Part shown: in pieces, positions 11,286 through 51,094 of the stretch
Layout of the letters: each line of letters begins with the position of its first letter
Numbering within the stretch: the first letter of the stretch is position 1
Assembly: GCA_049668445.1 (NCBI GenBank)
Contig: JBATJK010000299.1
Coordinates: 55,973-119,972, forward strand
Length of the DNA: 64,000 bases
Direction of reading: 5' to 3'
Source: Gemmatimonadota bacterium
Lineage (GTDB): Bacteria; Gemmatimonadota; Gemmatimonadetes; Palauibacterales; Palauibacteraceae
The notes under the pieces: model-generated
Told to the model about the DNA's origin: nothing
Database searches by the model: none
The model's input: only the letters and a program-made list of their open reading frames with translations
Position numbers and translations under genes: made by a program

Positions 11286-11359
11286 CGGGGAGTAGCTCAG
11301 TCCGGCAGAGCACTGGCTTTGGGAGCCAGGGGCCGCGGGTTCAAATCCCGCCTCCCCGA
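11286..11359 (+). tRNA. tRNA-Pro (anticodon UGG), no encoded CCA
   Basis: Folded manually. Acceptor CGGGGAG/CTCCCCG, D-stem GCTC/GAGC, anticodon stem CTGGC/GCCAG with loop TTTGGGA, T-arm GCGGG-TTCAAAT-CCCGC, discriminator A. Total 74 nt. Confidence 0.9.
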
Positions 11360-15577: not shown

Positions 15578-16273
15578 CTAGTCCTCCTCCACGACCTCCG
15601 CCAGCTTCTTCTCGTCATAGTAGTCGAGCTTGTGCAGAGGCATGACGACGCTCGACAGCACGTTCAGAACGTGTGCTGCGATCCTCTTGTAGAAACGCGC
15701 ACCCATGACGATGCACGTCGCTGTCGAGGCCGGGTAGTCGCTGCGAGCCACTCTGCCAACGACGGCGTCACACCGACGCGTCAGGTCCCGCCCTTCACGA
15801 ATCAGCTCCACCGCCCTCTCGTGGTCGGACGACTCGAACACGGGCACGACCTCGGCGAATCCGCGCTCTATCTCAGTGCGAATCTCTCTCATCTCGTGGA
15901 CGATCTCGTCGTCCGGCAAAGCGGACGGGTGATAGTCCCGGACCTCGGAGAGGTTCTTGGCGTAGTCGCCGATGCGCTCGACGTCCTTCACCAGGCTCAT
16001 CAGGAGCAGGCAATAGGGCACCGATGTCCTCTCAGATGACAGCGAGAGGTGGGCGATCACCTGCTTTCGGATCTTCCTCTCCAGCTTGTTGACCTTGACG
16101 TCGGTCTTGTAGACAGCCGTCCTGGCGTCTGCCTGGAGGGATTCCGAGAAATAGACCTCCCCGGCGACGATGGTCATGTCGTAGGTAAGGCCCAACATTT
16201 TCGAGAACTTCTCTCCCATTTCGGCTAGCGGCTCACCGGCGCGGAAGATGCTGAGCAGTTCCTTGAGCATCAC
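15578..16273 (-). CDS. PhoU-like / DUF47-type regulator associated with Na/Pi transporter
   Basis: The protein is 231 aa and helical. It sits immediately downstream of the Na/Pi cotransporter gene with a 10-nt gap. It has repeated PhoU-like helices (RIGDYAKNLSE). Confidence 0.65.
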   Translation of the reverse strand: MMLKELLSIFRAGEPLAEMGEKFSKMLGLTYDMTIVAGEVYFSESLQADARTAVYKTDVKVNKLERKIRKQVIAHLSLSSERTSVPYCLLLMSLVKDVERIGDYAKNLSEVRDYHPSALPDDEIVHEMREIRTEIERGFAEVVPVFESSDHERAVELIREGRDLTRRCDAVVGRVARSDYPASTATCIVMGARFYKRIAAHVLNVLSSVVMPLHKLDYYDEKKLAEVVEED

Positions 16274-16283
16274 GTACCTCCGA

Positions 16284-17408
16284 TTACAGCGCCCGGTTCA
16301 ACAATGCGAACAGGGCGGGTAGGCCATAAAACAGAATCAGGATATAGGCAATCGCCATCGTCTTGGACCTGACCGCGAGCCGGGCCAGGCGTCTCGCCAT
16401 ATTCAGCGGGATCTCCCGTATCCTCTTGACGGGATAGATCAGCGCCGTAGCGCTGACGTTGAACAGCAGATGAACCACGGCGATCGTCACCCCGGCCAGC
16501 GCATTCGGTCCCGTGACCGCCAGAGCGGCCAGGAACGCCGTGACGGTCGTGCCGATGTTGGCCCCGATCGTGATCGGGAAAGCCTGCTCGAGCGTGATCA
16601 GACCCGCTCCCGCGAGAGGCACCAGCAAAGACGTGGTGATTGAACTGGACTGCACCATCACGGTGACCACTATTCCGAGAATCATGGCCACGATAGGAGA
16701 GGTGTACAGCCCGCGCGACACCATCGTCTCGACCCGGGAACTCATGGCGCCCCGCATCACCTTCACCAGGAACAGCAGGGCGAAGTAGATCAGAAGGCCC
16801 GAGACCAGGATGAGGAGAGTCGCCTGGAGGCGCTCGGAATCCGAGACCGCGTGGATCCCTCCCTTGATGGGCTTGAGAGCCGCCTTCAGCGCACCCTTGA
16901 TCGGGCTGTCGTATTGCACCCCGCCGAGGCCCGTGAGAGAGGACGACAGCCAGGTCGCGGTCTTCTGCAGATACCCCGTGGCCATCTCGAGCGGGAGCAG
17001 AATGACCACGGCCATGAAGTTGAAGAAGTCGTGGACGGTCGCGACCGAGAAGGCCCGGTAGAACTCGTCCTTCCGTCCCATGTGGGCCAGGGAGACGAGA
17101 GTGTTCGTCACCGTCGTACCGATGTTGGCGCCCATGATCATCGGGACGGCGTTGGCTATGGGGAGCGCGTTCTCGGGCGCCGCGACCAGGCCCACGATGA
17201 GCGAGGTGGAAACGGAAGAGCTCTGGACCAGAGTCGTGGCAAGGATCCCCACCATGAGGCCCATGAACGGATTCTCGGTCGCCTGGAAGAAGGAGTCCAG
17301 CAATCCGCGTCCGAGGGACTTGAACGCGTCCCCCAAGCCGTTGACACCCAGGAGGAAGATGAACAGCAGTGCCAGCACCGTGAGGACACGCGCCAGCGGG
17401 TGTTCCAT
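16284..17408 (-). CDS. Na+/phosphate cotransporter family protein (NptA/YjbB-like)
   Basis: Duplicated Na_Pi_cotrans motifs: QSSSVSTSLIVGLV...ANIGTTVTN and QSSSITTSLLVPLA...ANIGTTVTA. The start is ATG 17408, with an alternative GTG at 17453. Confidence 0.85.
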   Translation of the reverse strand: MEHPLARVLTVLALLFIFLLGVNGLGDAFKSLGRGLLDSFFQATENPFMGLMVGILATTLVQSSSVSTSLIVGLVAAPENALPIANAVPMIMGANIGTTVTNTLVSLAHMGRKDEFYRAFSVATVHDFFNFMAVVILLPLEMATGYLQKTATWLSSSLTGLGGVQYDSPIKGALKAALKPIKGGIHAVSDSERLQATLLILVSGLLIYFALLFLVKVMRGAMSSRVETMVSRGLYTSPIVAMILGIVVTVMVQSSSITTSLLVPLAGAGLITLEQAFPITIGANIGTTVTAFLAALAVTGPNALAGVTIAVVHLLFNVSATALIYPVKRIREIPLNMARRLARLAVRSKTMAIAYILILFYGLPALFALLNRAL

Positions 17409-17893
17409 GAGCGGACGTACGGCGTTTGGGCGAAGCCCGGCGTCGGCATCCACAGCTGATCTCTACTGATAGAGGTAAGCGGCGTCCAGAACCCCAGGCC
17501 TACCACCCGTAGGGGCGGACGAGCAGTGGTTCGGCCGCAAAGTGCCGGGAGGGGTGTCCGGCAGCAAGCCCCCCCGGATCGTGCGATCAGAATCCCCAAT
17601 CTCGTAGGAGAACGCCCCGGCGGAACGGGAAGAGCGTGGCGGATCCCACCGACTCTCGTGCGGGGACTGCTCGCGATCTCGACGCTCGAAGGGTGAAATA
17701 TCGTTGGAGAATCGAACGGTCGGGTGTTGAATCCTGGGACAGACCTCCTAAGACTCTGTCCCTCTTCAGGATAGCCATGTGGACCCCCTGCTTCGACCTG
17801 AACAGGCGTTGAATTGTTCGACAATGCCGCCTCGAGGACCCCTCCATGGATCGCGGCTCTGTGACTTGATAACTACATACGCTAGAGCAAGTT

Positions 17894-17921: not shown

Positions 17922-17936
17922 TGGCACCCGGCTTGC
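17922..17936 (+). promoter_or_regulatory. sigma-54 (-24/-12) promoter TGGCAC-CCGGC-TTGC
   Basis: This is an exact match to the TGGCAC-N5-TTGC core. It lies 52 nt upstream of ATG 17988 and 106 nt upstream of the SD-supported ATG 18042. An NtrC-type sigma-54 activator is encoded at the end of the same gene run. Confidence 0.6.
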
Positions 17937-18041
17937 CTTACAAGTAGCTGAACGGCTACGCCCGGCCGCATAACTGGCCTCCCCGAGATGACGGGGCTGG
18001 TCGGAACCGGACTGAAGGGCAGAACAGCCGGGGAGGATACA

Positions 18042-18701
18042 ATGCTCGCAACCGTCTTCTTGGTAATCGTGGTGACCTTGCTGACCGGTCATTACTTCCT
18101 CGTGGAGCGACCGCGCCGACTCGCTGCTGAGTCCTCGAGTCGCCCCCTCGCTCTCCCGTTGCGGCAGCTCGTCAATCGGTTGCCTGCGGGTGTCTTCCTG
18201 CAGCCGACCTTCACCTGGGGGCAGGTGCGACCTGGCGGAGACGTCGAAATCGGAGTGCACCCAATGCTGCTGTCGCTGCTCGGTCCCAGCCCGGAGCTGG
18301 AAATGCGCAGCGCGGGTGAGCACGTCGACAAGGGGGACCCCCTTATGACAGTTGGTAGCGGGGAGAGGCGTCTCGTTGTCCGATCGCCGGTCGCGGGCAG
18401 CATCACCATGGCCAACGCGACTCCGCCGGTGGAGACGGAGTGGCAGAGCCGAAGCGACCGAACCTGCGTGATCCAGCCGGAGAGTCTGTCCAGCGAGGTA
18501 CCCGGTTGGATGATCGGACAAACGGCGATCGACTGGAGCAGGGAGCAGTACGGACGCATTCGCGACCACCTCCTGGAGCGATCCGCCGATCCCCAGACAG
18601 GGCTCGCTCTGGCGGATGGTGGAGAACTGCCGGTAGGGGCCCTCAACCAGCTGAATGCGGCTGATTGGGTGAACTTTGAAGAAGAGTTCCTGAACGGCTG
18701 A
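18042..18701 (+). CDS. membrane-anchored GcvH-fold (barrel-sandwich hybrid) protein, paralog A, lacking the lipoyl-lysine
   Basis: ATG 18042 has GGGGAGGA 6 nt upstream. The N-terminal TM is MLATVFLVIVVTLLTGHYFLV, followed by ERPRR. The core GEHVDKGDPLMTVGSGERRLVVRSPVAGSITMAN resembles GcvH. The C-terminal LADGGELPV...WVNFEEEFL is shared with paralogs D and E. Confidence 0.6.
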   Translation: MLATVFLVIVVTLLTGHYFLVERPRRLAAESSSRPLALPLRQLVNRLPAGVFLQPTFTWGQVRPGGDVEIGVHPMLLSLLGPSPELEMRSAGEHVDKGDPLMTVGSGERRLVVRSPVAGSITMANATPPVETEWQSRSDRTCVIQPESLSSEVPGWMIGQTAIDWSREQYGRIRDHLLERSADPQTGLALADGGELPVGALNQLNAADWVNFEEEFLNG

Positions 18702-18770
18702 CGCTGGCGGTAACCAACTGACGGGAGACAACGGTTACCCCCCGGACCTTTCATCTCTCAGGAGGCCGAG

Positions 18771-19643
18771 ATGCGTAGACGGACTGCCGTAAAGACCCTG
18801 GCCCTTGCCGCCGGTTCCACACTGGCGGGAAAGAACCTGGCCCAGGCCAGCACTTCTGGCGGAGAAGAAAACCTCGCCGCCACGGCTGAGTCCGCCTCAA
18901 TCCTGGTGGATACGACCAAGTGCCTGGGGTGCAGGATGTGCGAGCGTGCCTGCGCCGAGGCCAATGGCCTGCCCGAGCCGGCGAAGTCAGTGGAGCCGGG
19001 AGAGCAGCGGGACACCACGGAAACCCAGTGGACGGTCGTCAACCGATATGAGACCGAGACCGGCCCGGTTAACGTCAAGCGCCAATGCATGCACTGCCTG
19101 CAGCCGGCCTGCGCCTCCGCATGCCTCACCCGGGCCATGTACAAGACGGACGCCGGGCCGGTGATCTGGAGGGGAGACAAGTGCATGGGTTGCCGCTTCT
19201 GCATGCTCTCCTGTCCGTTCGACGTTCCGAAGTTCGAATACCACAGCGCGAATCCGCGCATTCAGAAGTGCAGGATGTGCTTCGACCGCTTGCAGGAGGG
19301 CGACCTGCCGGCTTGTGTCTCGGGCTGCCCGGCGAAGGCGACCGCTTTCGGCACCCGGAGCGAGATGCTGGACCTCGCCTGGTCGAGGGTGTACGCGGAG
19401 CCCGACAAGTACGTCCACCACGTCTATGGTGAGCATGAGGCAGGTGGCACGGGAGTTCTGTACCTGGCCTCCGTGCCCTTCGACCAGCTCGGATTCCGCA
19501 CCGACCTGAGTCCGCAAGCGTATCCGACCTTCACCCGTGAATTCCTCTATTCGGTCCCGTTCATCCTGACGATGTTCCCGCCGTTCCTGCTCGCGGTCAG
19601 CAAGGCAACGGCCGGAAACCGCCAGGAGGGAGGGGAGGGCTGA
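18771..19643 (+). CDS. Tat-exported 4x[4Fe-4S] ferredoxin-type subunit with C-terminal TM anchor (HybA/DsrO/NrfC-like)
   Basis: AGGAGG precedes ATG 18771. Twin-arginine signal [15 protein letters not shown]. Four Cys clusters: [36 protein letters not shown] and CRMC...CVSGCP. C-terminal hydrophobic segment [18 protein letters not shown]. Confidence 0.85.
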
Positions 19644-19645
19644 TC

Positions 19646-20908
19646 ATGGCAACCGTAACTGCGGACACACCCGGATTCTGGAACGGGACCCGGCGCTTCG
19701 GTCGGTTTCTGGCCGGCGAAATGAAGCCTCGCGGGAAGATCATCACGCCCTTCAACGTGATCACGATCGCGATCATGGCCGTCGCTGCCGTGATCCTGTA
19801 CATCCGCTTCACGCAGGGCCTGGGAGCGGTCACCAACCTCTCGCAGGATGTTCCTTGGGGCCTGTGGATCGGCTTCGACGTAATCACTGGAGTCGCGTTC
19901 GCCGGGGGGGCCTACGTCCTCTGCTTCATGGTCTACATCCTGAACCAGGAGAAGTACCACCCCATCGTGCGCGTGACGGTTCTGAACGGCTTCCTGGCGT
20001 ACGTTTTCTATGCCGGGGCCTTGCTGCTCGACCTCGGACGCCCGTGGAACGTGATCAATCCGATCATCGGCAACTCGTTCGGCGTGAGTTCGGTCCTGTT
20101 CCTGGTCGCCTGGCACTTTCTCCTCTACATGACGGCGGAGCTCCTCGAGTTTGCACCGGCCATCGCCGAGTGGGCGGGTTGGCCCCGCCTGCGTCGCTGG
20201 CTGAACCGCCTGACGCTCGGAGCGGTGATCTTCGGCATTACGCTTTCCACCCTGCACCAATCGGGTCTCGGGGCCCTGTACATGATGGCCCGCGACAAGG
20301 TGCACCCGCTCTGGTACTCGGAGTTCATTCCAATCATGTTCTTCGTTTCGAGCATCTTCGCTGGACTCTCCATGGTGATCTTCGAGGGTTCGATCACGCA
20401 CCGCGTGTTCCACCACCGGGTCGGAGAAGACCTGGAGCGCTCCCACGACAGCATCGTCCGCGGCCTGGCGCGGATCTGCGCCGGGACCCTCTTCGTATAT
20501 CTGTTCCTGCAGGTGCTCGTGTTCGTACACGGACAGAAATGGGAGTACCTGGCAACGGGGTGGGGAGCCTGGTACCTGCTTGAGATGATCGGCTTTGTCC
20601 TCGTCCCCATCGGGTTCTTCCTTCATGGAGTGGCGAAGAAGCGTCCCCGGCTGATCGGTACGGCCGCGGTGCTGACCTTGATCGGGATCGTGCTCAACCG
20701 TCTCAACATCTCGGTGATCGCCTTCAAGTGGTACCTGCCGGTGCGCTACGTGCCCACCTGGCAGGAGATCGTCGTCACACTCGCCGTCCTGTCGGCCGAG
20801 ATCTGGGTGTTCCGCTGGGTGGTCAACCGGATGCCGGTCCTGGACTCCAGTCATGTACGAGCGGAGGCAGTTGAGGAGGCCGACCATGCGCCGGCTTCCG
20901 CAGCCTGA
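19646..20908 (+). CDS. NrfD/HybB/DsrP/PsrC-type polytopic membrane (quinone-interacting) subunit
   Basis: ATG 19646 lies 2 nt after the upstream stop. The protein is 420 aa with about 10 TM segments. Its N-terminal PFNVITIAIMAVAAVILYIRF...GLWIGFDVITGVAFAGG is typical of the NrfD family. Confidence 0.85.
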   Translation: MATVTADTPGFWNGTRRFGRFLAGEMKPRGKIITPFNVITIAIMAVAAVILYIRFTQGLGAVTNLSQDVPWGLWIGFDVITGVAFAGGAYVLCFMVYILNQEKYHPIVRVTVLNGFLAYVFYAGALLLDLGRPWNVINPIIGNSFGVSSVLFLVAWHFLLYMTAELLEFAPAIAEWAGWPRLRRWLNRLTLGAVIFGITLSTLHQSGLGALYMMARDKVHPLWYSEFIPIMFFVSSIFAGLSMVIFEGSITHRVFHHRVGEDLERSHDSIVRGLARICAGTLFVYLFLQVLVFVHGQKWEYLATGWGAWYLLEMIGFVLVPIGFFLHGVAKKRPRLIGTAAVLTLIGIVLNRLNISVIAFKWYLPVRYVPTWQEIVVTLAVLSAEIWVFRWVVNRMPVLDSSHVRAEAVEEADHAPASAA

Positions 20909-20920
20909 GAGGTGAGACCA

Positions 20921-21619
20921 ATGGAAGGCATGGGTGCAGTGGATATCTTCGCGACAAAGGGGATCGAGTACCTGATCGTAATCGGCTTCCTGGTCGCCCT
21001 CGTGTTCTACTGGAAGCTGCTGGGCAGCACGGAGCCCAGCCCCGTTCCCAGTACCTCGAGACGGTCGGGCAGGGGTTGGTTCTCGGCTCCGCGAGACTAC
21101 CTGTTCCACCCGGGACACGCATGGGCAGCCCACGAGGGGAATCGCGTATTCCGCGTGGGCATGGATGACTTCGCGCAGCAACTGATTGGCGAGCCATCCG
21201 CACTCGAGCTGCCGAGCCCCGGAGAGCATCTGAGGCAAGGAGAGCTGGGCTGGACCGTGAAGGTCGGCCCTCGTGCCGTGCGGATGTTGTCCCCTGTCGA
21301 TGGAGTCGTCGAATCGGTCAACCCGGAAGTCGGCGGTTCACCGGGAATCGTGAATGACGACCCGTATGAGGGGGGCTGGCTGATGAAGGTCCGTGTGGCC
21401 GACGCCGACCAGCCCAGACGCAACCTTCTCGCGGCCGACATGGCCAGGGAATGGCTCGACCGGGCCGCCGAAGGCCTGCGGACCATGTGGACGCGGGAAC
21501 TGGGAGTGGCCCTGCCCGATGGTGGCGCCCCCGTGAAGGGGTTCGGGCGAGCGATGTCGGAGGACCACTGGGACGAACTGGCGGAGGAACTTCTCCTCAG
21601 TTCGAGCCTGCCGGAATAG
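20921..21619 (+). CDS. membrane-anchored GcvH-family protein, paralog D, lacking the lipoyl-lysine
   Basis: ATG 20921 (alternative GTG 20912) lies 12 nt after the NrfD-like stop. The TM is IEYLIVIGFLVALVFYWKLL. The GcvH signature is FHPGHAWA...VGMDDFAQQLIG...SPVDGVVESVNPEV...NDDPYEGGWLMKVRV. Pro occupies the lipoyl-Lys position. Confidence 0.7.
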   Translation: MEGMGAVDIFATKGIEYLIVIGFLVALVFYWKLLGSTEPSPVPSTSRRSGRGWFSAPRDYLFHPGHAWAAHEGNRVFRVGMDDFAQQLIGEPSALELPSPGEHLRQGELGWTVKVGPRAVRMLSPVDGVVESVNPEVGGSPGIVNDDPYEGGWLMKVRVADADQPRRNLLAADMAREWLDRAAEGLRTMWTRELGVALPDGGAPVKGFGRAMSEDHWDELAEELLLSSSLPE

Positions 21620-21670
21620 CAGGGACCAGGCGAGCACGAGGACGTTCACGCACAGACCTGGGAGCTTGAG

Positions 21671-22471
21671 ATGGTTACTGCGGGGATGGCAAGACAGCCC
21701 GAAGAAGCGCTTCCCTGCATCTGGGTACTGTCCGGTGTGCTGAGTTATCACTTGTGCGATCGCAACTACGAGTGCGATGGGTGTGAGTTGTATCACGCTC
21801 TCAGCGGAGAAGGAAGAGCATCCTGTCACCACGCCGAAGGGACTTCGCCGGGGTCGATCGACATACTCGACGCGGCGTCGCCCTCGGGGCAGGCCAGCTC
21901 ACACCTTTCGCACTTGCTGGCGGGGTGCCGGCTGTATCTCGACCGACCCTACAGGCCCCCGCACTTCTGGCTCACGCAAACCGAGGGGGATCTGGTCACC
22001 GTAGGCCTGGACGGGTCTCTTCTGCGCATGCTCCGTCCGATTCGCCGGGTCGTGAGTCCTGGGCCGGGGCTCTACCTGGAGCGGGATCAGCCGTGCGGCT
22101 GGATAGCCAGGGAGCACATGGCCGTGCCGCTGAAGATGCCGATCGCCGGAGAAGTTGTTGAAGCCAACTCGACCTTTGCGGCAGCAGACGAGCCGTGCCG
22201 ACTCCCCGATGGCGACGACTGGTTGTTCCGGGTCCGCCCAGCCGAGTCGCTGGAGGCGGTTTCGGGCATCGTGAACGCTGAAGGTACTCTGGCCTGGTAC
22301 GCCGATCGTCTGCGAACCGTCAAGCGGGCGATCCTGCAATCGCTTTCCGTACCTGAGGGATCAACCGTGGGGCCGGTTCTGGCGGACGGTGGGGCCCCGC
22401 TGTCCTCCCTGGAGCGTGTTCTGGGCACGAAGGCATTCGAGGAACTGATCGCCGCCATCGCGCACGGCTGA
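21671..22471 (+). CDS. soluble GcvH-fold protein, paralog E, with N-terminal C-x12-C-x5-C-x2-C motif
   Basis: ATG 21671. The N-terminus is PCIWVLSGVLSYHLCDRNYECDGCELY. The core is HFWLTQTEGDLVTVGLD...MPIAGEVVEAN...DDWLFRVRP. The C-terminal LADGGAPL...FEELI is shared with paralogs A and D. Confidence 0.6.
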   Translation: MVTAGMARQPEEALPCIWVLSGVLSYHLCDRNYECDGCELYHALSGEGRASCHHAEGTSPGSIDILDAASPSGQASSHLSHLLAGCRLYLDRPYRPPHFWLTQTEGDLVTVGLDGSLLRMLRPIRRVVSPGPGLYLERDQPCGWIAREHMAVPLKMPIAGEVVEANSTFAAADEPCRLPDGDDWLFRVRPAESLEAVSGIVNAEGTLAWYADRLRTVKRAILQSLSVPEGSTVGPVLADGGAPLSSLERVLGTKAFEELIAAIAHG

Positions 22472-22649
22472 GGACTCGACCGCCCTCGCAGTACAAGAAG
22501 ATCTGCACTACTCGAACCCTCTCCCCCGGGCACGTATTGTGCAAGGATTCAACACCGCAGAACGCGTTCGCTGCTGATCCGCCGGACAGTGCCCCCTTCG
22601 CACTTCCATGGCCGTCGATTGGGCCTGCGGCGCTAAAGCGAGGCATTGC

Positions 22650-24308
22650 ATGGGCAAGCCTGCCTGGACCTCGGTTCTGAAGTCTGCCATCAGCATACGA
22701 CTGTTCGCGATCCTCTTCCTCTCGATCCTCGGGCTGTTCTTCATCTATACGAGCATCTGTAACCACTATCGGGACACAATGACACTGGAACTCGTTCGCT
22801 CCGAGGCGTTTCGGGCCAGTAGCTTCATCAAGAAGAGCCTCGAAGTGGAGATGATGGAGAAGGAGCGGGAGCACATCCACCGCACGGTGCGTCAGCTGGG
22901 CGCCGAGCCGGGTATGGAAGGGATCCGGATCTACAATGACCGAGGGCAAATACGGTTCTCCAGCCTGGCCGACGAGATCGGTACGAGTGTGCCGCTCGAC
23001 TCGGATGCCTGCCGCGCCTGCCACGGCAGCGGCGATCCGCCAAGCGTTCTTCCGAGCGGAGAGCAGGGGCAGATCTACACCCGTGGAGATCAGGGCCGGG
23101 TTCTCGGGATCCTGAACCCGATCCTCAACGAGCCGAACTGCGCGACGGCAGGGTGCCATGATCCGGACCAGAAAGTGCTCGGCGTTCTCGACGTCCAGCT
23201 CTCACTGGCCACCGTCGATGCGGCCATGTCGGCGGCGACCTGGCGCAGCGGACTCGTCGGACTGGCAATCATCTTCGTGTCTGCCCTGGTGATCGCCCTC
23301 ATCGTCTACAACGCCATCCATATTCCGGCCAAGAAACTGCAGCTCGGCACGGAGGCCCTCGCCGCAGGGAACCTCGACGTATCGATCGATCTGAAGCGCT
23401 CGGACGAGCTGGGGCAGCTGGCCCGTTCATTCAACGAAATGGCCCGCAGTCTCAAGACCGCAGACGCCGAGCTGCGGGATTGGTCACAAACGCTGGAAGA
23501 CCGGGTGACCGAGAAGACCGCTGAACTCGAGTCGATCAGTCGGCAGATGATCCAGGTGGAGCGGGCCGCCTCACTCGGCCGCATGGCGGCGACCGTGGCC
23601 CATGAGCTCAACAACCCGCTCTCCGGCATCGTGACCTACTCCCGCGTGATCGCCCGCAAGGTCGAGAAGGACATGGAAGAGGGGGAGCGCCGGGACAAGA
23701 TCGTCGAGGAGTTGGATCTGATCCGCTCCGAGTCGATGCGGTGCGGCCGAATCGTGAAGGACCTCCTCACGTATGCCCGTGAGTCGCCTCACGAGTTCAA
23801 GGCCGAGCACCTGCACGAGCTGGTCGAACGCGTCACAAACCTGGCCGGGCATCATCTGCAGCTCGGTTCGGTCGAGGTGACCGTGCTGCCAGACCTGGCC
23901 AACGACACGGTGGTGTGCGACGGCGATCAGATCGTTCAGGCACTGCTGGCGCTGATGATCAACGCCGTGGAGGCGATGCCGGAAGGTGGCCAACTCACGC
24001 TCCGCACCGCGCCGGGTGAATCCGATCCCGAGAGAAACGTGCTGCTGGCCGTCGAGGATACCGGGAGCGGCATCCCGGAGGCCATCCGGGGCCGGATCTT
24101 CGACCCCTTCTTCAGTACGAAGGCGGAGACCAGTGGCGTCGGGCTCGGGCTCGCCGTCGTGTACGGCATCATCAGCCGCCACGGTGGCACCATTCGCGTT
24201 GAATCCGGGCCTGGACCCGGCACCACCTTCCTGATCGAACTGCCCCGCGAGCCGGTCACGGCTCCTCCATCCACGTATGAGCTGGACATCAACGAGTGGC
24301 GGACATGA
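22650..24308 (+). CDS. sensor histidine kinase (TM - periplasmic loop with CXXCH and CX4CH motifs - TM - HAMP - HisKA - HATPase)
   Basis: Two TM segments flank a loop of about 165 aa that contains CRACH and CATAGCH. The HAMP domain reads LAAGNLDVSIDLKRSDELGQLARSFNEMA. The H-box is AATVAHELNNPLSGI. The G-boxes are EDTGSGIP and GVGLGLAVVYGI. The start is ATG 22650, or 22608. Confidence 0.85.
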   Translation: MGKPAWTSVLKSAISIRLFAILFLSILGLFFIYTSICNHYRDTMTLELVRSEAFRASSFIKKSLEVEMMEKEREHIHRTVRQLGAEPGMEGIRIYNDRGQIRFSSLADEIGTSVPLDSDACRACHGSGDPPSVLPSGEQGQIYTRGDQGRVLGILNPILNEPNCATAGCHDPDQKVLGVLDVQLSLATVDAAMSAATWRSGLVGLAIIFVSALVIALIVYNAIHIPAKKLQLGTEALAAGNLDVSIDLKRSDELGQLARSFNEMARSLKTADAELRDWSQTLEDRVTEKTAELESISRQMIQVERAASLGRMAATVAHELNNPLSGIVTYSRVIARKVEKDMEEGERRDKIVEELDLIRSESMRCGRIVKDLLTYARESPHEFKAEHLHELVERVTNLAGHHLQLGSVEVTVLPDLANDTVVCDGDQIVQALLALMINAVEAMPEGGQLTLRTAPGESDPERNVLLAVEDTGSGIPEAIRGRIFDPFFSTKAETSGVGLGLAVVYGIISRHGGTIRVESGPGPGTTFLIELPREPVTAPPSTYELDINEWRT

Positions 24309-25648
24309 AGAACGGCAAGAAGATACTGATCGTGGACGATGAGATGTCGGTCCGGAACTCTCTGCGGGAGTGGTTTCTCGAGGACGGATTCGCGGTGGAG
24401 ACCGCCGAGGATGGCAACGCTGCCCTGCAGCGGATGCACTCCGGACCCTACGACATCGTGATCATCGATCTCAAGATGCCGGGGATGGACGGAATCACGC
24501 TGGAACGACGTATCCGCGAGATCGACAAGGACGCCGCCATCATCATCCTCACGGCCTTTGCCTCGGTAGAAACGGCCGTAGAGGCCCTGAAATTGGGTGC
24601 GTTCGACTACGTGACCAAACCCGTCGACCCCGACGAGCTCTCCAACACGGTCCGCAACGCTCTCAAACAGCGTCAGCTCGAGGCTGAGAATACGCGCCTC
24701 AAAGCGAAGGTCTCCGAGCTCACGCTACCGTCGCCGATCATTGGCGACAGTTCGAGAATGCGCCGGGTCCTCGACATGATCTCGACCGTCGCGGGAACGG
24801 ACGCCAACGTGGTGATCCGGGGGGAGAGCGGAACAGGGAAGGAGTTGATCGCCAGGGCTATCCACACCCAGAGCGAGCGACGCTTCTTCCCGATCGTGGC
24901 GGTCAACTGCGGCTCGATCCCGGAGACTCTCCTGGAGAGCGAACTCTTCGGTCACGAGAAGGGGGCGTTTACGGGCGCCCAGTACCGCAGGAAGGGGAAG
25001 ATCGAGCTGGCGCATGGGGGTACGCTGTTCCTCGACGAGATCGGCGACATACCGACGAAGATGCAGGTCGACCTGCTCCGAGTGCTGGAGACCAGGCGAT
25101 TCCATCGGCTGGGGGGCAACCAGGAGATCACCTCCGACTTCAGGCTGGTCTGCGCCACGAATCGTGACCTGGAGGCCCTGATCGAGGAGGGCAGTTTCAG
25201 GGAGGACTTGTACTATCGGATCAACGTATTCGTGATCGACTTGCCCCCGCTTCGCGATCGTCCCGAGGACATTCCGGCGCTCACCCGTCACTTCATCGAG
25301 AAGTACGCTCATGCGATGGGTAAGCCCGTGAAGGAAATATCTCCGGAGGTAGAGGCGTTACTGGTCTCGTATGCCTGGCCTGGGAACGTGCGCGAGTTGG
25401 AGAACGCGGTGGAACGGGCGATGGTGATCGGTCGGGAGCCCTCCGTTCAGCCGGAGGACCTGCCAGTGCCCCTGGCCCGCTCGGAAGCGGAACCGGAGGG
25501 CTCGACGCTGGCGGCCATCGAGCGGCGTCATATTGAGCGCGTGCTCCGGGCAGAGCAGGGGAATATCACCCGAGCGGCTGCGGCGCTCGGCATCGATCGG
25601 GGCACGCTCTACAACAAACTCCGACGCTACGACATTGAGCGCACTTAG
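24305..25648 (+). CDS. sigma-54-dependent response regulator (NtrC/ZraR family: REC - AAA+ - Fis HTH)
   Basis: ATG 24305 overlaps the kinase stop (ATGA). REC domain KILIVDDE...DIVIIDLKMPGMDG. Walker A GESGTGKE. GAFTGA motif EKGAFTGA. HTH TRAAAALGIDRGTLYNKLRRY. Confidence 0.9.
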   Translation: MKNGKKILIVDDEMSVRNSLREWFLEDGFAVETAEDGNAALQRMHSGPYDIVIIDLKMPGMDGITLERRIREIDKDAAIIILTAFASVETAVEALKLGAFDYVTKPVDPDELSNTVRNALKQRQLEAENTRLKAKVSELTLPSPIIGDSSRMRRVLDMISTVAGTDANVVIRGESGTGKELIARAIHTQSERRFFPIVAVNCGSIPETLLESELFGHEKGAFTGAQYRRKGKIELAHGGTLFLDEIGDIPTKMQVDLLRVLETRRFHRLGGNQEITSDFRLVCATNRDLEALIEEGSFREDLYYRINVFVIDLPPLRDRPEDIPALTRHFIEKYAHAMGKPVKEISPEVEALLVSYAWPGNVRELENAVERAMVIGREPSVQPEDLPVPLARSEAEPEGSTLAAIERRHIERVLRAEQGNITRAAAALGIDRGTLYNKLRRYDIERT

Positions 25649-26202
25649 TGGTCACTCGCATTGAGCTCGGCTTTCTCAACGGGTACGCTCCGTCCTGGGC
25701 GGAGCGCATCGTAGAGGGATCGGCCCTGGTCCTGGGGTACCCGGTGGGGGCGGTCGAGCTAGAGATGGAGTTGCCGAGGTACTATTCGGCCGACCGGGGG
25801 CAGTACAACGCCACTTTGATCCTGGCCGGGCTGCTGCGGTATCACTCGGACCCCGAGAGCAAGATCGTCGGAATCACCCGAGTGGACTTGTTTATTCCCG
25901 TTCTCACGTTCGTGTTCGGGCAGGCGCAGCTCGACGGGCCGGGGGCTCTCGTATCCACACACAGGTTGCGCAACGAGTATTACGGACTCCCGCGCGATCG
26001 CGAGCGACTGGTGGACCGCACGATCAAGGAAGTGGTCCACGAGGTAGGGCACTCTTTCGGCCTGGTCCATTGCCAGGACTACAGCTGCGTGATGCACGCC
26101 GCCACCTACGTGGAGGACGTGGACCTCAAGTCCTCGCGTTTCTGCGCGTCCTGCGAGTCGCAGCTTCACAAAGATGCAATACGACCCCGAGAGACCGTCT
26201 GA
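25648..26202 (+). CDS. archaemetzincin-family zinc metallopeptidase (M54)
   Basis: GTG 25648 overlaps the regulator stop (TAGTG). HEVGHSFGLVHCQDYSCVMH...FCASC fits HEXXHXXGX3CX4CXM...CXXC. Confidence 0.8.
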   Translation: MVTRIELGFLNGYAPSWAERIVEGSALVLGYPVGAVELEMELPRYYSADRGQYNATLILAGLLRYHSDPESKIVGITRVDLFIPVLTFVFGQAQLDGPGALVSTHRLRNEYYGLPRDRERLVDRTIKEVVHEVGHSFGLVHCQDYSCVMHAATYVEDVDLKSSRFCASCESQLHKDAIRPRETV

Positions 26203-47652: not shown

Positions 47653-48885
47653 TCAGCTCCACTTCCCGGCCATCGACATCCGGGACTCAACACCCGGAAT
47701 CTCCGCGCCCTTGAGAAGCATGTTCCAGTAGATCCAGCGGAAGGCCATCTTGCCCCAGTGATTCATCTCGCTCTCGCCAAGTAGACTCAAAGGGCCTACG
47801 CCCGGCACCGGGTACTTTCCGGGCAGGGGCTCGACATCGTAGTTGAAGTCGATCAGGACGGCCTTGCCGAAGCCGGTCTCAATGAAGCAGTTGGCATGTC
47901 CGTCGAACTCGTCGATCAAGGGGCGGCCCTTGATTGCCCGCAGGAGGTTTTCTTCCAGAACCTCGCCCTGGAAATGGGCGACAGAACCCGCCTTGGAACT
48001 CGGAAGATCAGTCGCATCGCCAAGGACGAAGATGTTCTCGAATCCGTCCGCCTGGAGCGTGTTCTTGTTCGTCGGAATGAACGACAGCTCATCGCCCATG
48101 TCCGAGCGCTCGATGGTCTCGCTCCCCATATGAGTCGGTATCGTCACAAGGAGGTCGTACGGGATATCCCTTTCGTCCCAGCTCCTCAGAGTTCCATTCG
48201 CGCCATCGACCGAACCGGCCGAGAACAGGCCCTCGACCTTGATGTTCTTCTTGTCGAGAATGTCGCCCAGCATGGCCGAAGCACGGGGCTTGGTGAAGGC
48301 TCCCTCCAGGGGCGTGGCATAGACGATCTCCGTCTTGTCCCGCACGCCCTTTTCCGTCAGGTACCAGTCGGCAAGGCACACGAACTCGATCGGCGCAATC
48401 GGGCACTTGATCGGCATCTCCACGACGTTCAGGACCAACCGCCCTCCCTCCCACGACTCGAGCGCCGCCTCAAGCCTGGCCGCACCATCAAGCGTGTAGA
48501 AGTCGAACGCGGTCTCCTGCCACCCATGATCGGTCAGGCCCTCAGTTTCCTCGGGGACGATTCTGCTTCCCGTCGCAATGACGAGGAAGTCGTACTCGAG
48601 CTCCGTACCCCCGCTGAGCCGCACCTTGTTCTGATCAGGAGCGATCGCATCGATCTCCGAGATGATGAAGTCGACGCCTCTCGGGATATACCTGGACCTC
48701 GGCTTGATCACGTCTCGCGTGCGATAGATGCTGAACGGAATGAACAGTAGGCCGGGCTGATATATATGCCGATCGTCCTGGTCCACGACGGTGATCTCCC
48801 ACTCGTCCAGATCCAGGTTTCGCCTCATCTTGGCCGCCATCATGGTGCCGGCGGTGCCAGCACCCAGAATGAGCAGCTTCTTCAT
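47653..48885 (-). CDS. NAD(P)/FAD-dependent oxidoreductase, sulfide:quinone oxidoreductase-like
   Basis: GGAGGA precedes ATG 48885. Rossmann motif KKLLILGAGTAGTMMAAK. It also has PIKCPIAPIEF and VLGDATDLPSSKAGS. The protein is 410 aa. Confidence 0.8.
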   Translation of the reverse strand: MKKLLILGAGTAGTMMAAKMRRNLDLDEWEITVVDQDDRHIYQPGLLFIPFSIYRTRDVIKPRSRYIPRGVDFIISEIDAIAPDQNKVRLSGGTELEYDFLVIATGSRIVPEETEGLTDHGWQETAFDFYTLDGAARLEAALESWEGGRLVLNVVEMPIKCPIAPIEFVCLADWYLTEKGVRDKTEIVYATPLEGAFTKPRASAMLGDILDKKNIKVEGLFSAGSVDGANGTLRSWDERDIPYDLLVTIPTHMGSETIERSDMGDELSFIPTNKNTLQADGFENIFVLGDATDLPSSKAGSVAHFQGEVLEENLLRAIKGRPLIDEFDGHANCFIETGFGKAVLIDFNYDVEPLPGKYPVPGVGPLSLLGESEMNHWGKMAFRWIYWNMLLKGAEIPGVESRMSMAGKWS

Positions 48886-48958: not shown

Positions 48959-48973
48959 GCAACGTCAGTGCCA
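48959..48973 (-). promoter_or_regulatory. sigma-54 (-24/-12) promoter TGGCAC-TGACG-TTGC(A) on the minus strand
   Basis: The plus strand reads GCAACGTCAGTGCCA. The site is an exact core match, 74 nt upstream of the SQR-like ATG. A sigma-54 activator gene is divergent, about 340 nt away. Confidence 0.6.
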
Positions 48974-49309: not shown

Positions 49310-51094
49310 ATGAACAACTCGGTGATGTCAGATGTGGAAGCGACGGGCGAGGATCGCCGCCTCGCGCACCTGATCGACCTGGCGGGCCTGGCCTGGTTTG
49401 AGGTCGACGCGGACCGGAACATCGTCGCCATGAGCCCGGCCCTCGAGCATCTGACGGGTTTTGATGCCGACGACGTCCTGGGGAGATCCTGCCTTACCGC
49501 CATCCGGTGTAACGAGTGCCTCAAAGGCTGCGGTGTGTTCCGCCATGGTACGGTTCGGCGAGCTCAACTCAGTATCTACCGGTCGGATGGCAGCGAGGCC
49601 CAGGTTTACAAGTCGGGGCAGGTTCTCAGGGACGAGGCGGGCAACATCACGGGAGCCGTTGAGATCGTCGAGCTGCGCGAACCCGAGACTACGCTGACCG
49701 GCGAGTCCTCGCCCGAATTGAGTTCCCTGTTGAGCGGTCTCGGAAGGGAGTTCGTGACGGCAGACGCCGAGATGCGAGTGCTGGCGTGCTCGACTGCATT
49801 GCCGGGGCTCCTGGGGCTCGAGCAGGAAGCTCTGGTCGGTCGCCCCCTGACGAGTCTGTTCACCGGCGAGCTCTTCGACGAAGAGGGGGCGGTCGCAAGT
49901 GCGATCCTCGCGGGAGAGCGGAGAGAGGGTTGGAGGGCCTCCCTGCTCGGGGCCGATGGGCAGGAGATTCCCGTTTCGCTCAGCATCGGACCGGTTGATA
50001 CATCGGACACGTGCGGCGGGTTGGATTCGCGGGTCGTGGTGATGATTCGCCCCGAGGACCTCGAGTCCCGCGAAGCACCGTCGTTCGAGGGGATTATCTC
50101 ACGCTCGGCCTCAATGCAGAGGATCTTCCGGATCATCGAGCTCCTTCGAGACAATGACTCCACCGTTCTCATCACGGGCGAGAGCGGTACTGGCAAGGAG
50201 CTGGTGGCGCGAGCGCTTCACTCCACGTCGCATAGGGCGGACGGGCCGTTCATCGAGGTCAACTGCGCGGCCATCCCAAGCGAATTGCTGGAGAGTGAGC
50301 TCTTCGGACATGTCCGGGGCGCGTTCACCGGAGCAGTGCGCGACAGGGCGGGGCGGTTCGAACTCGCGGAGGGGGGCACCCTCTTCCTGGACGAGATCGG
50401 CGATCTGGCTCTGGGTCTCCAGGCCAAGATCCTGAGGTTTCTCCAGGAGCATACATTCGAGAGAGTGGGCGACACCCGGACCCGCCGAGTGGACGTGCGA
50501 GTGATTGCGGCCACGCACGTCGACCTCGTGCGAGCCGTAGCGGAACGGAAGTTCCGAGAAGACCTCTACTATCGATTGCGCGTCGTGCCGATGGAGATAC
50601 CTCCTCTGCGCGACAGACGAGAGGATCTGGAGCTTCTGATCCGGGCGTTCCTGGATCGTATCGGGAGAGAGCGGGGCCGGTCCCTGCGACTCGCCCCATC
50701 CGCCAGCCGGGCTCTTCTCACATACAAGTGGCCCGGCAATGTGCGGGAACTCCAGAACGCGCTGGAGTACGCGACGACTGTGTGCGAAGGTCAGACCATT
50801 CACATCAAGGATCTTCCTTCCGAGGTTGGACGCTACGGCGGAGAACGCATGGCGCCTGGCCAGGCGCCGGGCGTGCCCGCTTCACCGACCCCGGAGACAG
50901 CCTCCGCGATGACGGCACTGCCCGTCGCGCGGCGCTCTCTCGCGGAACAGGGCCTCAGTCCCACGGAGATGTCCGAGGCGGAGAACATCCTCGCAGAGCT
51001 TGAATCCGCCCGCTTTCATAGGGGACTGGCCGCTGAGCGTCTCGGGATGAGTCGCACCACTCTGTGGCGGAAGATGAAGCAATACCGTTTGTGA
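49310..51094 (+). CDS. sigma-54-dependent transcriptional activator (PAS sensor domains - AAA+ - Fis HTH), no receiver domain
   Basis: GESGTGKELVARALH, the GAFTGA motif VRGAFTGA, WPGNVRELQN, and the HTH MSRTTLWRKMKQYRL. The N-terminal PAS-like region contains C-x5-C-x2-C-x3-C. Confidence 0.9.
   Translation: MNNSVMSDVEATGEDRRLAHLIDLAGLAWFEVDADRNIVAMSPALEHLTGFDADDVLGRSCLTAIRCNECLKGCGVFRHGTVRRAQLSIYRSDGSEAQVYKSGQVLRDEAGNITGAVEIVELREPETTLTGESSPELSSLLSGLGREFVTADAEMRVLACSTALPGLLGLEQEALVGRPLTSLFTGELFDEEGAVASAILAGERREGWRASLLGADGQEIPVSLSIGPVDTSDTCGGLDSRVVVMIRPEDLESREAPSFEGIISRSASMQRIFRIIELLRDNDSTVLITGESGTGKELVARALHSTSHRADGPFIEVNCAAIPSELLESELFGHVRGAFTGAVRDRAGRFELAEGGTLFLDEIGDLALGLQAKILRFLQEHTFERVGDTRTRRVDVRVIAATHVDLVRAVAERKFREDLYYRLRVVPMEIPPLRDRREDLELLIRAFLDRIGRERGRSLRLAPSASRALLTYKWPGNVRELQNALEYATTVCEGQTIHIKDLPSEVGRYGGERMAPGQAPGVPASPTPETASAMTALPVARRSLAEQGLSPTEMSEAENILAELESARFHRGLAAERLGMSRTTLWRKMKQYRL

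Follow-up and report, generated by a model that had tools for sequence, protein, structure and literature searches.

What do proteins with the fold of the glycine cleavage H protein (GcvH) do when the lysine that should carry the lipoyl group is absent from all of them? The question is raised by a locus in a 64,000-nucleotide stretch of DNA (the whole of which is called here the window) from a Gemmatimonadota bacterium (GenBank assembly GCA_049668445.1, contig JBATJK010000299.1, positions 55,973 to 119,972), with a G+C content of ~64%. Five co-directional genes on the + strand, A to E, are followed there by genes for a histidine kinase, a response regulator and an M54 metallopeptidase; A, D and E encode GcvH-like proteins and B and C proteins of a membrane redox module. 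Our answer, to which we attribute a probability of about 0.55, is that A, D and E are non-lipoylated pseudo-GcvH scaffold subunits that make up a cytoplasmic accessory part of a membrane redox module of the Hmc/Nhc type. The five genes and their parts are as follows.

18042-18701 (+), protein A, 219 aa: N-terminal transmembrane (TM) helix (18042-18104) and degenerate GcvH-like domain, with Glu at the lipoyl position (18363-18365) and DGG at 18615-18623
18771-19643 (+), protein B, 290 aa: HmcB/HybA-like periplasmic 4x[4Fe-4S] protein
19646-20908 (+), protein C, 420 aa: NrfD-family integral membrane quinone-interacting subunit of the HmcC/HybB type
20912-21619 (+), protein D, 235 aa (232 aa from the probable true start, ATG 20921): DIFATKG at 20942-20962, TM helix at 20963-21025, Pro at the lipoyl position (21269-21271) and DGG at 21518-21526
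21671-22471 (+), protein E, 266 aa: soluble GcvH-like protein, with C-x12-C-x5-C-x2-C at 21716-21784, His at the lipoyl position (22115-22117) and DGG at 22385-22393

The longest open reading frame (ORF) of gene A opens at 17988; the start previously assigned to it, ATG 18042, was upheld by a conserved GGGGAGG Shine-Dalgarno sequence, and residues of A are numbered from this codon.

A sequence-only reading of the window had described A, D and E as one family of GcvH-fold paralogues in which the lipoyl-lysine was replaced, and both points were borne out; as far as can be told from sequence and predicted structure, the three conditions proposed for refuting it turned out in its favour. In the Pfam GCV_H search, D (8e-23, 81.1 bits) and E (3e-8, 34.1 bits) passed the gathering score of 22.2 and A (0.0017, 18.7 bits) fell under it; orthologues at the position of A in other phyla reached up to 3e-23. 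Pairwise BLASTP related the three proteins to one another (E=1e-7 for A-D, 2e-5 for A-E and 6e-8 for D-E), the pairs with A spanning the GcvH-like domain and the C-terminal tail. AlphaFold 2 (AF2) models had a mean predicted local distance difference test score (pLDDT) of 80.6 for D, with >90 in the GcvH domain, and of 73 for E. Solved GcvH structures were ranked first by Foldseek for both models (target TM-score of 0.88-0.93 and root-mean-square deviation of ~1.5 Å for D; target TM-score up to 0.86 for E), and the barrel-sandwich fold that had been put forward for checking was thereby found in D and E. Genuine GcvH (PF01597; PDB 1onl, 3hgb, 1htp) has the same fold, and the motifs HxW, G-x-D-x-A, LP..G, SP-x-G, N and PY..GW are shared. 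In contrast to it, A, D and E have a variable hairpin tip (Glu, Pro or His) without the lipoyl lysine, and add N-terminal membrane helices or a Cys-rich module as well as a C-terminal helix-DGG-helix tail.

The phmmer alignments with solved GcvH presented no gaps around the hairpin and placed the lipoyl-lysine opposite Pro120 in D, His149 in E and Glu108 in A; the same column was obtained for the three proteins with MAFFT and four genuine GcvH sequences. No lysine occurred at the hairpin, and the substituted residue was located in the AF2 models at the turn between the hairpin strands (residues 112-118 and 121-126 in D, 141-147 and 150-155 in E). This position was followed in A-, D- and E-type sets of 40, 69 and 43 orthologues, obtained by sorting by position the GcvH-like genes of 80 related loci from species-representative genomes. 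The column was variable in each set: G, E, D, N and others in the A-type (Lys in 4/40), S, G, P and others in the D-type (Lys in 2/69), and D, G, E, H and others in the E-type (Lys in 1/43). No cytoplasmic lysine was conserved in any of the sets, the sole invariant one being K16, in the periplasmic N-terminal HmcD motif of D. A lysine located in D three residues upstream of the hairpin tip was considered as a shifted attachment site and rejected, as it was not conserved.

Judged from these alignments, lysine loss belongs to the families and not just to this genome. Since the lipoyl column is variable and conserved cytoplasmic lysines are lacking across about 150 orthologues, a role of A, D and E as lipoyl or biotinyl carriers appears very unlikely, as had been suspected before. 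All five genes A-E were under purifying selection (dN/dS, the ratio of non-synonymous to synonymous substitution rates, of 0.04-0.19 against three relatives), which ruled out that A, D and E are pseudogenes or relics. What they do as functional proteins does not involve the carrier chemistry of GcvH. LbpA, of the sHdr sulfur-oxidation system, is likewise a GcvH-like protein that serves a redox system and not glycine cleavage; it reportedly retains its lipoyl lysine and is accompanied by specific lipoate ligases and by sHdr genes, whereas A, D and E have no such lysine and no Hdr-like or ligase family recurred in the related loci.

The extra C-terminal module, noticed previously as common to the three proteins, was retained in all orthologue sets. 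D-G-G was conserved in 86-100% of each set and appeared within the last 90 residues, ~30 residues from the C-terminus, in 37/40 A-type, 64/69 D-type and 37/43 E-type proteins. A long helix precedes it and two short helices follow it in the models of D and E, the DGG loop of D having low AF2 confidence. A profile of this tail, built from the three window copies, yielded 97 matches in 1.84 billion representative proteins, essentially all of them C-terminal on GCV_H proteins of 215-245 aa or on fragments of these; a KH-domain protein and one other long match were discarded as spurious repeats. By this search, the helix-DGG-helix module defines this GcvH-like family.

Best matches beyond the own locus stayed within type for 37/40 A-, 66/69 D- and 42/43 E-type proteins. 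The types also differed in their N-terminal marks: a plain helix in the A-type, F[AS]TKG plus helix exclusively in the D-type (53/69), and C-x12-C-x5-C-x2-C exclusively in the E-type (41/43). The description of A and D as membrane-anchored and of E as Cys-rich was thus supported. The claim that the three copies had diversified in situ did not stand, because A, D and E form separate orthologous groups across about ten phyla with best matches within type; recent local duplication was excluded by the same matches. These matches, together with the recurrence of each type across about ten phyla, indicate that the A/D/E triplication is ancient, and as far as gene comparisons tell, the block is inherited or transferred as a unit.

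The Cys module of E displayed no Pfam match and no relative among PDB sequences (20-sequence profile; best E=0.14, spurious), and its pLDDT in AF2 was <50. In seven loci, mostly from Desulfobacterota, it is replaced by an unrelated Cys unit (CPFL..FCKAxPxKKMxP...C...CPxY), also without Pfam match, in the following soluble GcvH-like genes (related loci are given by their L numbers).

L018 5216-6187, unit twice
L025 80-1012, unit twice
L034 3712-4620, unit twice
L037 5689-6663, unit twice
L048 968-1984, unit twice
L047 1176-1886, unit once
L070 3341-4117, unit once

The N-terminal parts found on the GcvH+DGG core comprise a plain helix, the HmcD helix, a cytochrome c plus helix, the two unrelated Cys-rich modules and an acetyl-CoA-synthetase-like (ACS-like) enzyme. 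Such variety on one core is the pattern expected of a docking or oligomerisation module.

Proteins B and C connect this family with membrane redox complexes. B matched Pfam Fer4_11 (1.6e-20, 73.6 bits, above gathering) and, in NCBIfam, HmcB (1e-89) and HybA (3e-60); a twin-arginine signal (MRRRTAVK) and a hydrophobic C-terminal anchor were read from its sequence. C matched Pfam NrfD (1.1e-14, 55.3 bits, above gathering), HmcC (1e-120) and HybB (4.5e-77). The N-terminus of D, DIFATKGIEYL plus helix, matched NCBIfam HmcD (0.0014 here and 1.8e-5 in locus L042), and Pfam PF28260 (DVU_0533) was precomputed on many D homologues. A Fer4_11 protein with a twin-arginine translocation (Tat) signal beside an NrfD-family membrane protein is the arrangement of NrfC/NrfD-type modules. 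The HmcA, HmcE and HmcF families were not found in the cluster. By these homologies, the module is a relative of the Hmc B-C-D core, as in Nhc, and not the Hmc complex itself.

The topology of D was indicated by a natural fusion. P0230 (413 aa) consists of a signal peptide, 4 x CxxCH, an MFATKGVEYL helix, a GcvH-like domain and DGG; the residues before the HmcD helix are therefore periplasmic and the GcvH-like domain cytoplasmic (N-terminus out, C-terminus in). The positive-inside distribution read from the sequences of A and D accords with this topology, and P0230 ties the system to periplasmic cytochromes c. Adjacent 5-haem c3/c7-like or 8-haem cytochromes were encoded in subsets of the related loci. 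In another protein, P0260, a D-type C-terminus continues into a cytochrome c7-like protein.

The closest relatives of B, C and the D helix are HmcB, HmcC and HmcD of the Desulfovibrio Hmc (HmcABCDEF) and Nhc (NhcABCD) complexes. These include a periplasmic multihaem cytochrome (HmcA/NhcA), and some relatives of the window locus encode or fuse one likewise. The differences with Hmc are considerable: the window cluster lacks HmcA, HmcE (cytochrome b) and HmcF (CCG protein), D has a cytoplasmic GcvH-like extension, there are one or two GcvH-like subunits besides, and the hosts (Gemmatimonadota, Bacteroidota, Acidobacteriota and Planctomycetota) are mostly not sulfate reducers. HybA/HybB of Escherichia coli hydrogenase 2 and the NrfC/NrfD modules present the same pair of a Tat-exported, tail-anchored four-cluster ferredoxin and a cofactor-less NrfD-type subunit; in contrast to them, no catalytic partner (hydrogenase, molybdoenzyme) is encoded here. 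In a review of NrfD-type complexes (PMC8076601), a text search for 'glycine' and 'GcvH' gave no hits and cytoplasmic GcvH-like subunits were unmentioned.

The block was widely distributed. A search of 185,579 species genomes gave 599 pattern matches, of which at least 482, from about ten phyla, encoded a relative of D; hosts included Gemmatimonadota, Bacteroidota, Ignavibacteria/Chlorobiota, Calditrichota, Desulfobacterota (Syntrophales, Thermodesulfobacteriota), Acidobacteriota, Planctomycetota, Eisenbacteria, Krumholzibacteria, Myxococcota and Chloroflexota. All 80 kept loci belonged to metagenome-assembled genomes (MAGs), those closest to the window locus being Gemmatimonadota MAGs. The 240 D homologues listed were without exception metagenomic or MAG-derived, with no cultured host among the matches listed; the family comprised >1,200 protein clusters at 90% identity. 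Synteny counts were restricted to kept loci with full 7 kb flanks (26 of 80), in which B, C and the sigma-54 regulator were present in 26, the kinase in 25 and the M54 gene in 22; at least two GcvH-like genes occurred in 25 loci and at least three in 16. Gene order was A-B-C-D-E-kinase-regulator-M54 in the window and M54-x-D-B-C-cytochrome-kinase-regulator in some Desulfobacterota.

Two variants departed from this organisation. In Gemmatimonadaceae, a tandem GcvH-GcvH protein (D-D) that has lost DGG is followed by an 8-haem cytochrome, with no A, E, kinase or M54 nearby. Each of its domains has gained four conserved cysteines (by HxGH, in the PY loop, where the tail helix begins and in the loop that formerly held DGG).

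L065 6983-8239, tandem D-D variant; also found in L027, L029, L058, L068, L072 and L073

In one Deltaproteobacteria MAG, a fourth GcvH-like+tail unit, encoded just after E, is joined to an ACS-like adenylating enzyme.

L067 8584-11061, fusion of ACS-like enzyme and GcvH-like+tail unit

The idea that this fusion represents a loading enzyme was rejected: six metagenome relatives were ordinary E-type proteins without the enzyme, and the fusion is consequently a one-off.

Expression of the block could be linked to a defined promoter and a two-component system. The features involved are as follows.

17726-17741 (+), palindrome 1, GTTGAATCCTGGGACA, putative enhancer-binding-protein site
17808-17823 (+), palindrome 2, GTTGAATTGTTCGACA, putative enhancer-binding-protein site, ~100 bp 5' of the -24/-12 box
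17922-17936 (+), sigma-54 -24/-12 promoter, TGGCACccggcTTGC, perfect consensus match
17937-18041 (+), conserved 5' leader, with hairpin GTAGCT-GAAC-GGCTAC at 17944-17959
22538-22553 (-), palindrome 3, with one mismatch, in the E-to-kinase spacer beside a weak GG-N10-GC box (22528-22542)
22608-24308 (+), HAMP histidine kinase (Pfam HAMP, HisKA, HATPase_c), with CRACH at 23010-23024 and CATAGCH at 23139-23159
24296-25648 (+), NtrC-type sigma-54-dependent response regulator (Pfam Response_reg, Sigma54_activat at 2e-71, HTH_8)
25648-26202 (+), archaemetzincin-like (M54) metallopeptidase (Pfam Peptidase_M54, 3.9e-25), with HEVGHSFGLVH at 26038-26070

The sigma-54 box was sought as TGGCAC-N5-TTGC and the palindromes as GTYGAA-N4-KSGACA. 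The box at 17922-17936 lies ~105 nt 5' of the ATG of A and was one of two perfect matches in the window; a near-consensus box was found at the equivalent position in 27/72 related loci, where it was usually the sole match of the locus. Palindromes 1 and 2, ~190 and ~100 bp 5' of the box, were the sole exact matches in the window. Promoter, both palindromes and the whole leader were conserved between the window and loci L005-L007, and in three relatives the conservation of the leader approached that of coding sequence; no Rfam match was obtained for it. Scans of the locus for terminators and sigma-70 promoters gave nothing above shuffled expectation. Palindrome 3, which overlaps the weak GG-N10-GC box, suggests autoregulation of a kinase-regulator-M54 unit. 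The other perfect sigma-54 box in the window (48959-48973, - strand) is upstream of a gene for a 410-aa Pyr_redox_2 flavoprotein (47653-48885, - strand), which is divergent from that of a PAS-domain sigma-54 activator (49310-51094, + strand); these two look like a second sigma-54 regulator/target pair.

Two motifs, an invariant C-x2-C-H and a C-x4-C-H, occur in the periplasmic domain of the kinase; among 55 orthologues C135, C138, H139, C178 and C183 were 100% conserved, and H184 91%. These invariant cysteine pairs suggest that the domain is probably a haem-c redox sensor. The start of the M54 gene overlaps the stop codon of the regulator; its HExxHxxGxxH zinc site is intact, no signal peptide was present, and where the gene occurred it was always beside the kinase or the regulator. 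A similar regulatory arrangement has been described in Geobacter, where the sigma-54 regulator BccR induces the quinone:cytochrome oxidoreductase operon cbcBA as redox potential falls (doi 10.1101/2021.04.15.440034). That system resembles what we propose for the window operon, a sigma-54 promoter with an adjacent NtrC-type regulator answering redox potential; it differs in its products, as CbcBA is a dihaem cytochrome b and a 7-haem cytochrome c, with no NrfD-type subunit and no GcvH-like proteins.

Taken together, the proposal is that B (Tat-exported, with four [4Fe-4S] clusters and tail-anchored) and C (the cofactor-less NrfD-type subunit) would exchange electrons between periplasmic c-type cytochromes, the presumed redox partner also in this genome, and the membrane quinone pool. 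D would be the single-helix subunit HmcD with a GcvH-fold domain added on its cytoplasmic side, A a second helix-tethered GcvH-like copy, and E a soluble copy with a four-cysteine module that may bind a metal or an Fe-S cluster. The GcvH fold would serve in them as a protein scaffold or docking module and not as a swinging-arm carrier. The helix-DGG-helix tail would act as an interaction element, by which the copies may bind one another, the cytoplasmic face of C, or both. Transcription of the operon would start at the sigma-54 promoter and be activated by the adjacent NtrC-type regulator under the haem-c-type sensor kinase; as this kinase has a periplasmic sensor and would control the regulator, expression would follow the periplasmic redox state. 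Lysine-less lipoyl-like domains by a membrane redox complex have a parallel in the N-terminal barrel-sandwich domains of NqrA and RnfC, which are cofactor-less and lysine-less and lie at the cytoplasmic face of Na+-NQR and Rnf. The likeness is drawn as an analogy and not as a tested homology: those domains are of another fold subfamily, not GCV_H, have no DGG tail and have unrelated membrane partners, and Foldseek gave a weak RnfC match (9eri_C, E=0.12).

Several observations weigh against the scaffold proposal. The binding of A, D and E to B and C or to one another is something that we infer. A was missing in Bacteroidota and Syntrophales; with its absence from several lineages, a "trimer" is not universal. 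The Hmc equivalog cut-offs were missed by all three relatives (300.7 vs. 420 for HmcB, 403.4 vs. 550 for HmcC and 18.6 vs. 34 for HmcD). No window ORF carried two or more CxxCH motifs, and a periplasmic multihaem partner is thus unaccounted for. If the role were purely structural, there would be no obvious reason for keeping three to four copies, for a DGG that hardly varies, or for at least four cysteines in every soluble copy. The co-inherited archaemetzincin with its intact HExxHxxGxxH is not accounted for. Finally, with cofactor-less NrfD-type subunits and no cytochrome b gene here, it is not obvious by which path electrons would pass to or from E if it had a redox role in the cytoplasm.

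A broader possibility is that A, D and E constitute a novel cytoplasmic module on NrfD-type complexes, either a redox or energy-coupling head or a module governed by M54 processing or modification at DGG. By such a redox or energy-coupling head, a process in the cytoplasm could be linked with the quinone pool or with cytochromes of the periplasm. We consider this broader possibility tentative, with the odds clearly against it.

Slightly less probable still is a cytoplasmic redox output, in which the four cysteines of E would hold an Fe-S cluster and the GcvH-like proteins would replace HmcE/HmcF, linking the quinone/cytochrome pool to a cytoplasmic acceptor or donor. Genuine Hmc is redox-active on its cytoplasmic side, through HmcF. 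The constant Cys-richness of the soluble copy (with the Cx12Cx5Cx2C spacing in nearly all E orthologues) agrees with such an output, as do the unrelated CPFL...FCKA...C...CP repeat that fills the same place in Desulfobacterota-type loci and the four cysteines per domain gained by the Gemmatimonadaceae tandem variant where DGG was lost. However, a cytochrome b or any other transmembrane cofactor carrier is lacking in the cluster, the Cys module is without detectable relatives in Pfam or PDB sequences and is modelled with very low confidence, and a structural zinc fits four cysteines equally well.

Signalling or regulated proteolysis is a more doubtful explanation. The main role of the GcvH-like proteins would then be regulatory and not bioenergetic: they would report the state of B-C to the kinase and regulator, or be substrates of M54, for instance cut at or after D-G-G. 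The joint occurrence of kinase, regulator and M54 with the cluster across phyla, with M54 always adjoining one of the other two, and the intact M54 site speak for it. The same holds for the compartment, since an M54 without signal peptide would be on the same side as the GcvH-like domains, and for the absence of M54 and kinase from the neighbourhood in the sole lineage that has lost DGG. This correlation concerns a single lineage, though, and residues past DGG are conserved (G210 and W220 in 100% of the D-type), contrary to what a discarded tail would show. Moreover, the kinase senses through a periplasmic domain of its own, and the operon, with a sigma-54 promoter ahead of A, is placed under the regulator as a target and does not belong to the sensor.

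Improbable, in our estimation, is that the proteins carry some other covalent group at a non-lysine site (e.g., the DGG loop or a cysteine) or a non-covalent ligand on the GcvH fold. An intact fold under purifying selection would suit this role, and so would the invariant flexible DGG loop with its low AF2 confidence and the relative in which an adenylate-forming ACS-like enzyme is fused to a GcvH-like domain. That fusion is a single case, not shared by the six close relatives, and the hairpin tip is unconserved in every family. Besides, Ser12, Glu14 and Asp67 of the pea H protein, which we take to hold the aminomethyl-lipoyl arm, are faced in the phmmer alignment of D by Gly, Ala and Arg, and no ligase, lipoyl synthase or other modifying enzyme was conserved in the cluster. 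The last explanation, that A, D and E are what the public names and their GCV_H matches say, "glycine cleavage system H (lipoate-binding) protein" or LbpA-type proteins, is refuted at the sequence level and retains practically no probability, as the lipoyl lysine is gone in them and across orthologues, the TIGR00527 equivalog cut-off of 115.85 bits is far above the scores of D (73.7) and E (26.3), with no match for A, membrane anchors and extra modules have been added, and the neighbours in the window and in the 80 related loci are HmcB/HmcC-like, kinase, regulator and M54 genes, with neither gcvT/gcvP nor sHdr genes among them.

With regard to the surroundings of the locus, a PhoU-domain protein and a Na+/Pi cotransporter are encoded directly upstream on the opposite strand (15578-17453, -); they were kept only in the closest relatives and therefore fall outside the system. 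Rfam and tRNA scans gave nothing at the locus, the single find in the window being a tRNA-Pro at 11286-11359.

Full-text literature searches retrieved no paper linking GcvH-like proteins with NrfD/Hmc-type complexes or describing this cluster. The components are of known kinds (the GcvH fold, an NrfC/NrfD module, a sigma-54 two-component system); their combination and the pseudo-carrier subunits are new. For annotation the practical weight is direct: the database label "glycine cleavage system H / lipoate-binding protein" is wrong for this family and distorts metabolic reconstructions, as when glycine cleavage or the reductive glycine pathway is inferred in MAGs. The proteins mark instead an uncharacterised and widespread NrfD-type respiratory module of uncultured soil and sediment bacteria, whose regulatory logic is clear: the sensor kinase probably binds haem, the regulator is of the sigma-54 type, and the promoter is defined and has putative binding sites. 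They would offer a clean example of a cofactor-carrier fold turned into a structural or docking subunit. They also give a handle on what sits at the cytoplasmic side of NrfD-type complexes, the proton pathway of which is under debate, and on the function of bacterial archaemetzincins, of which they would be, if M54 does act on them at DGG, the first physiological substrate. The module is thus of interest for anaerobic and periplasmic respiration.

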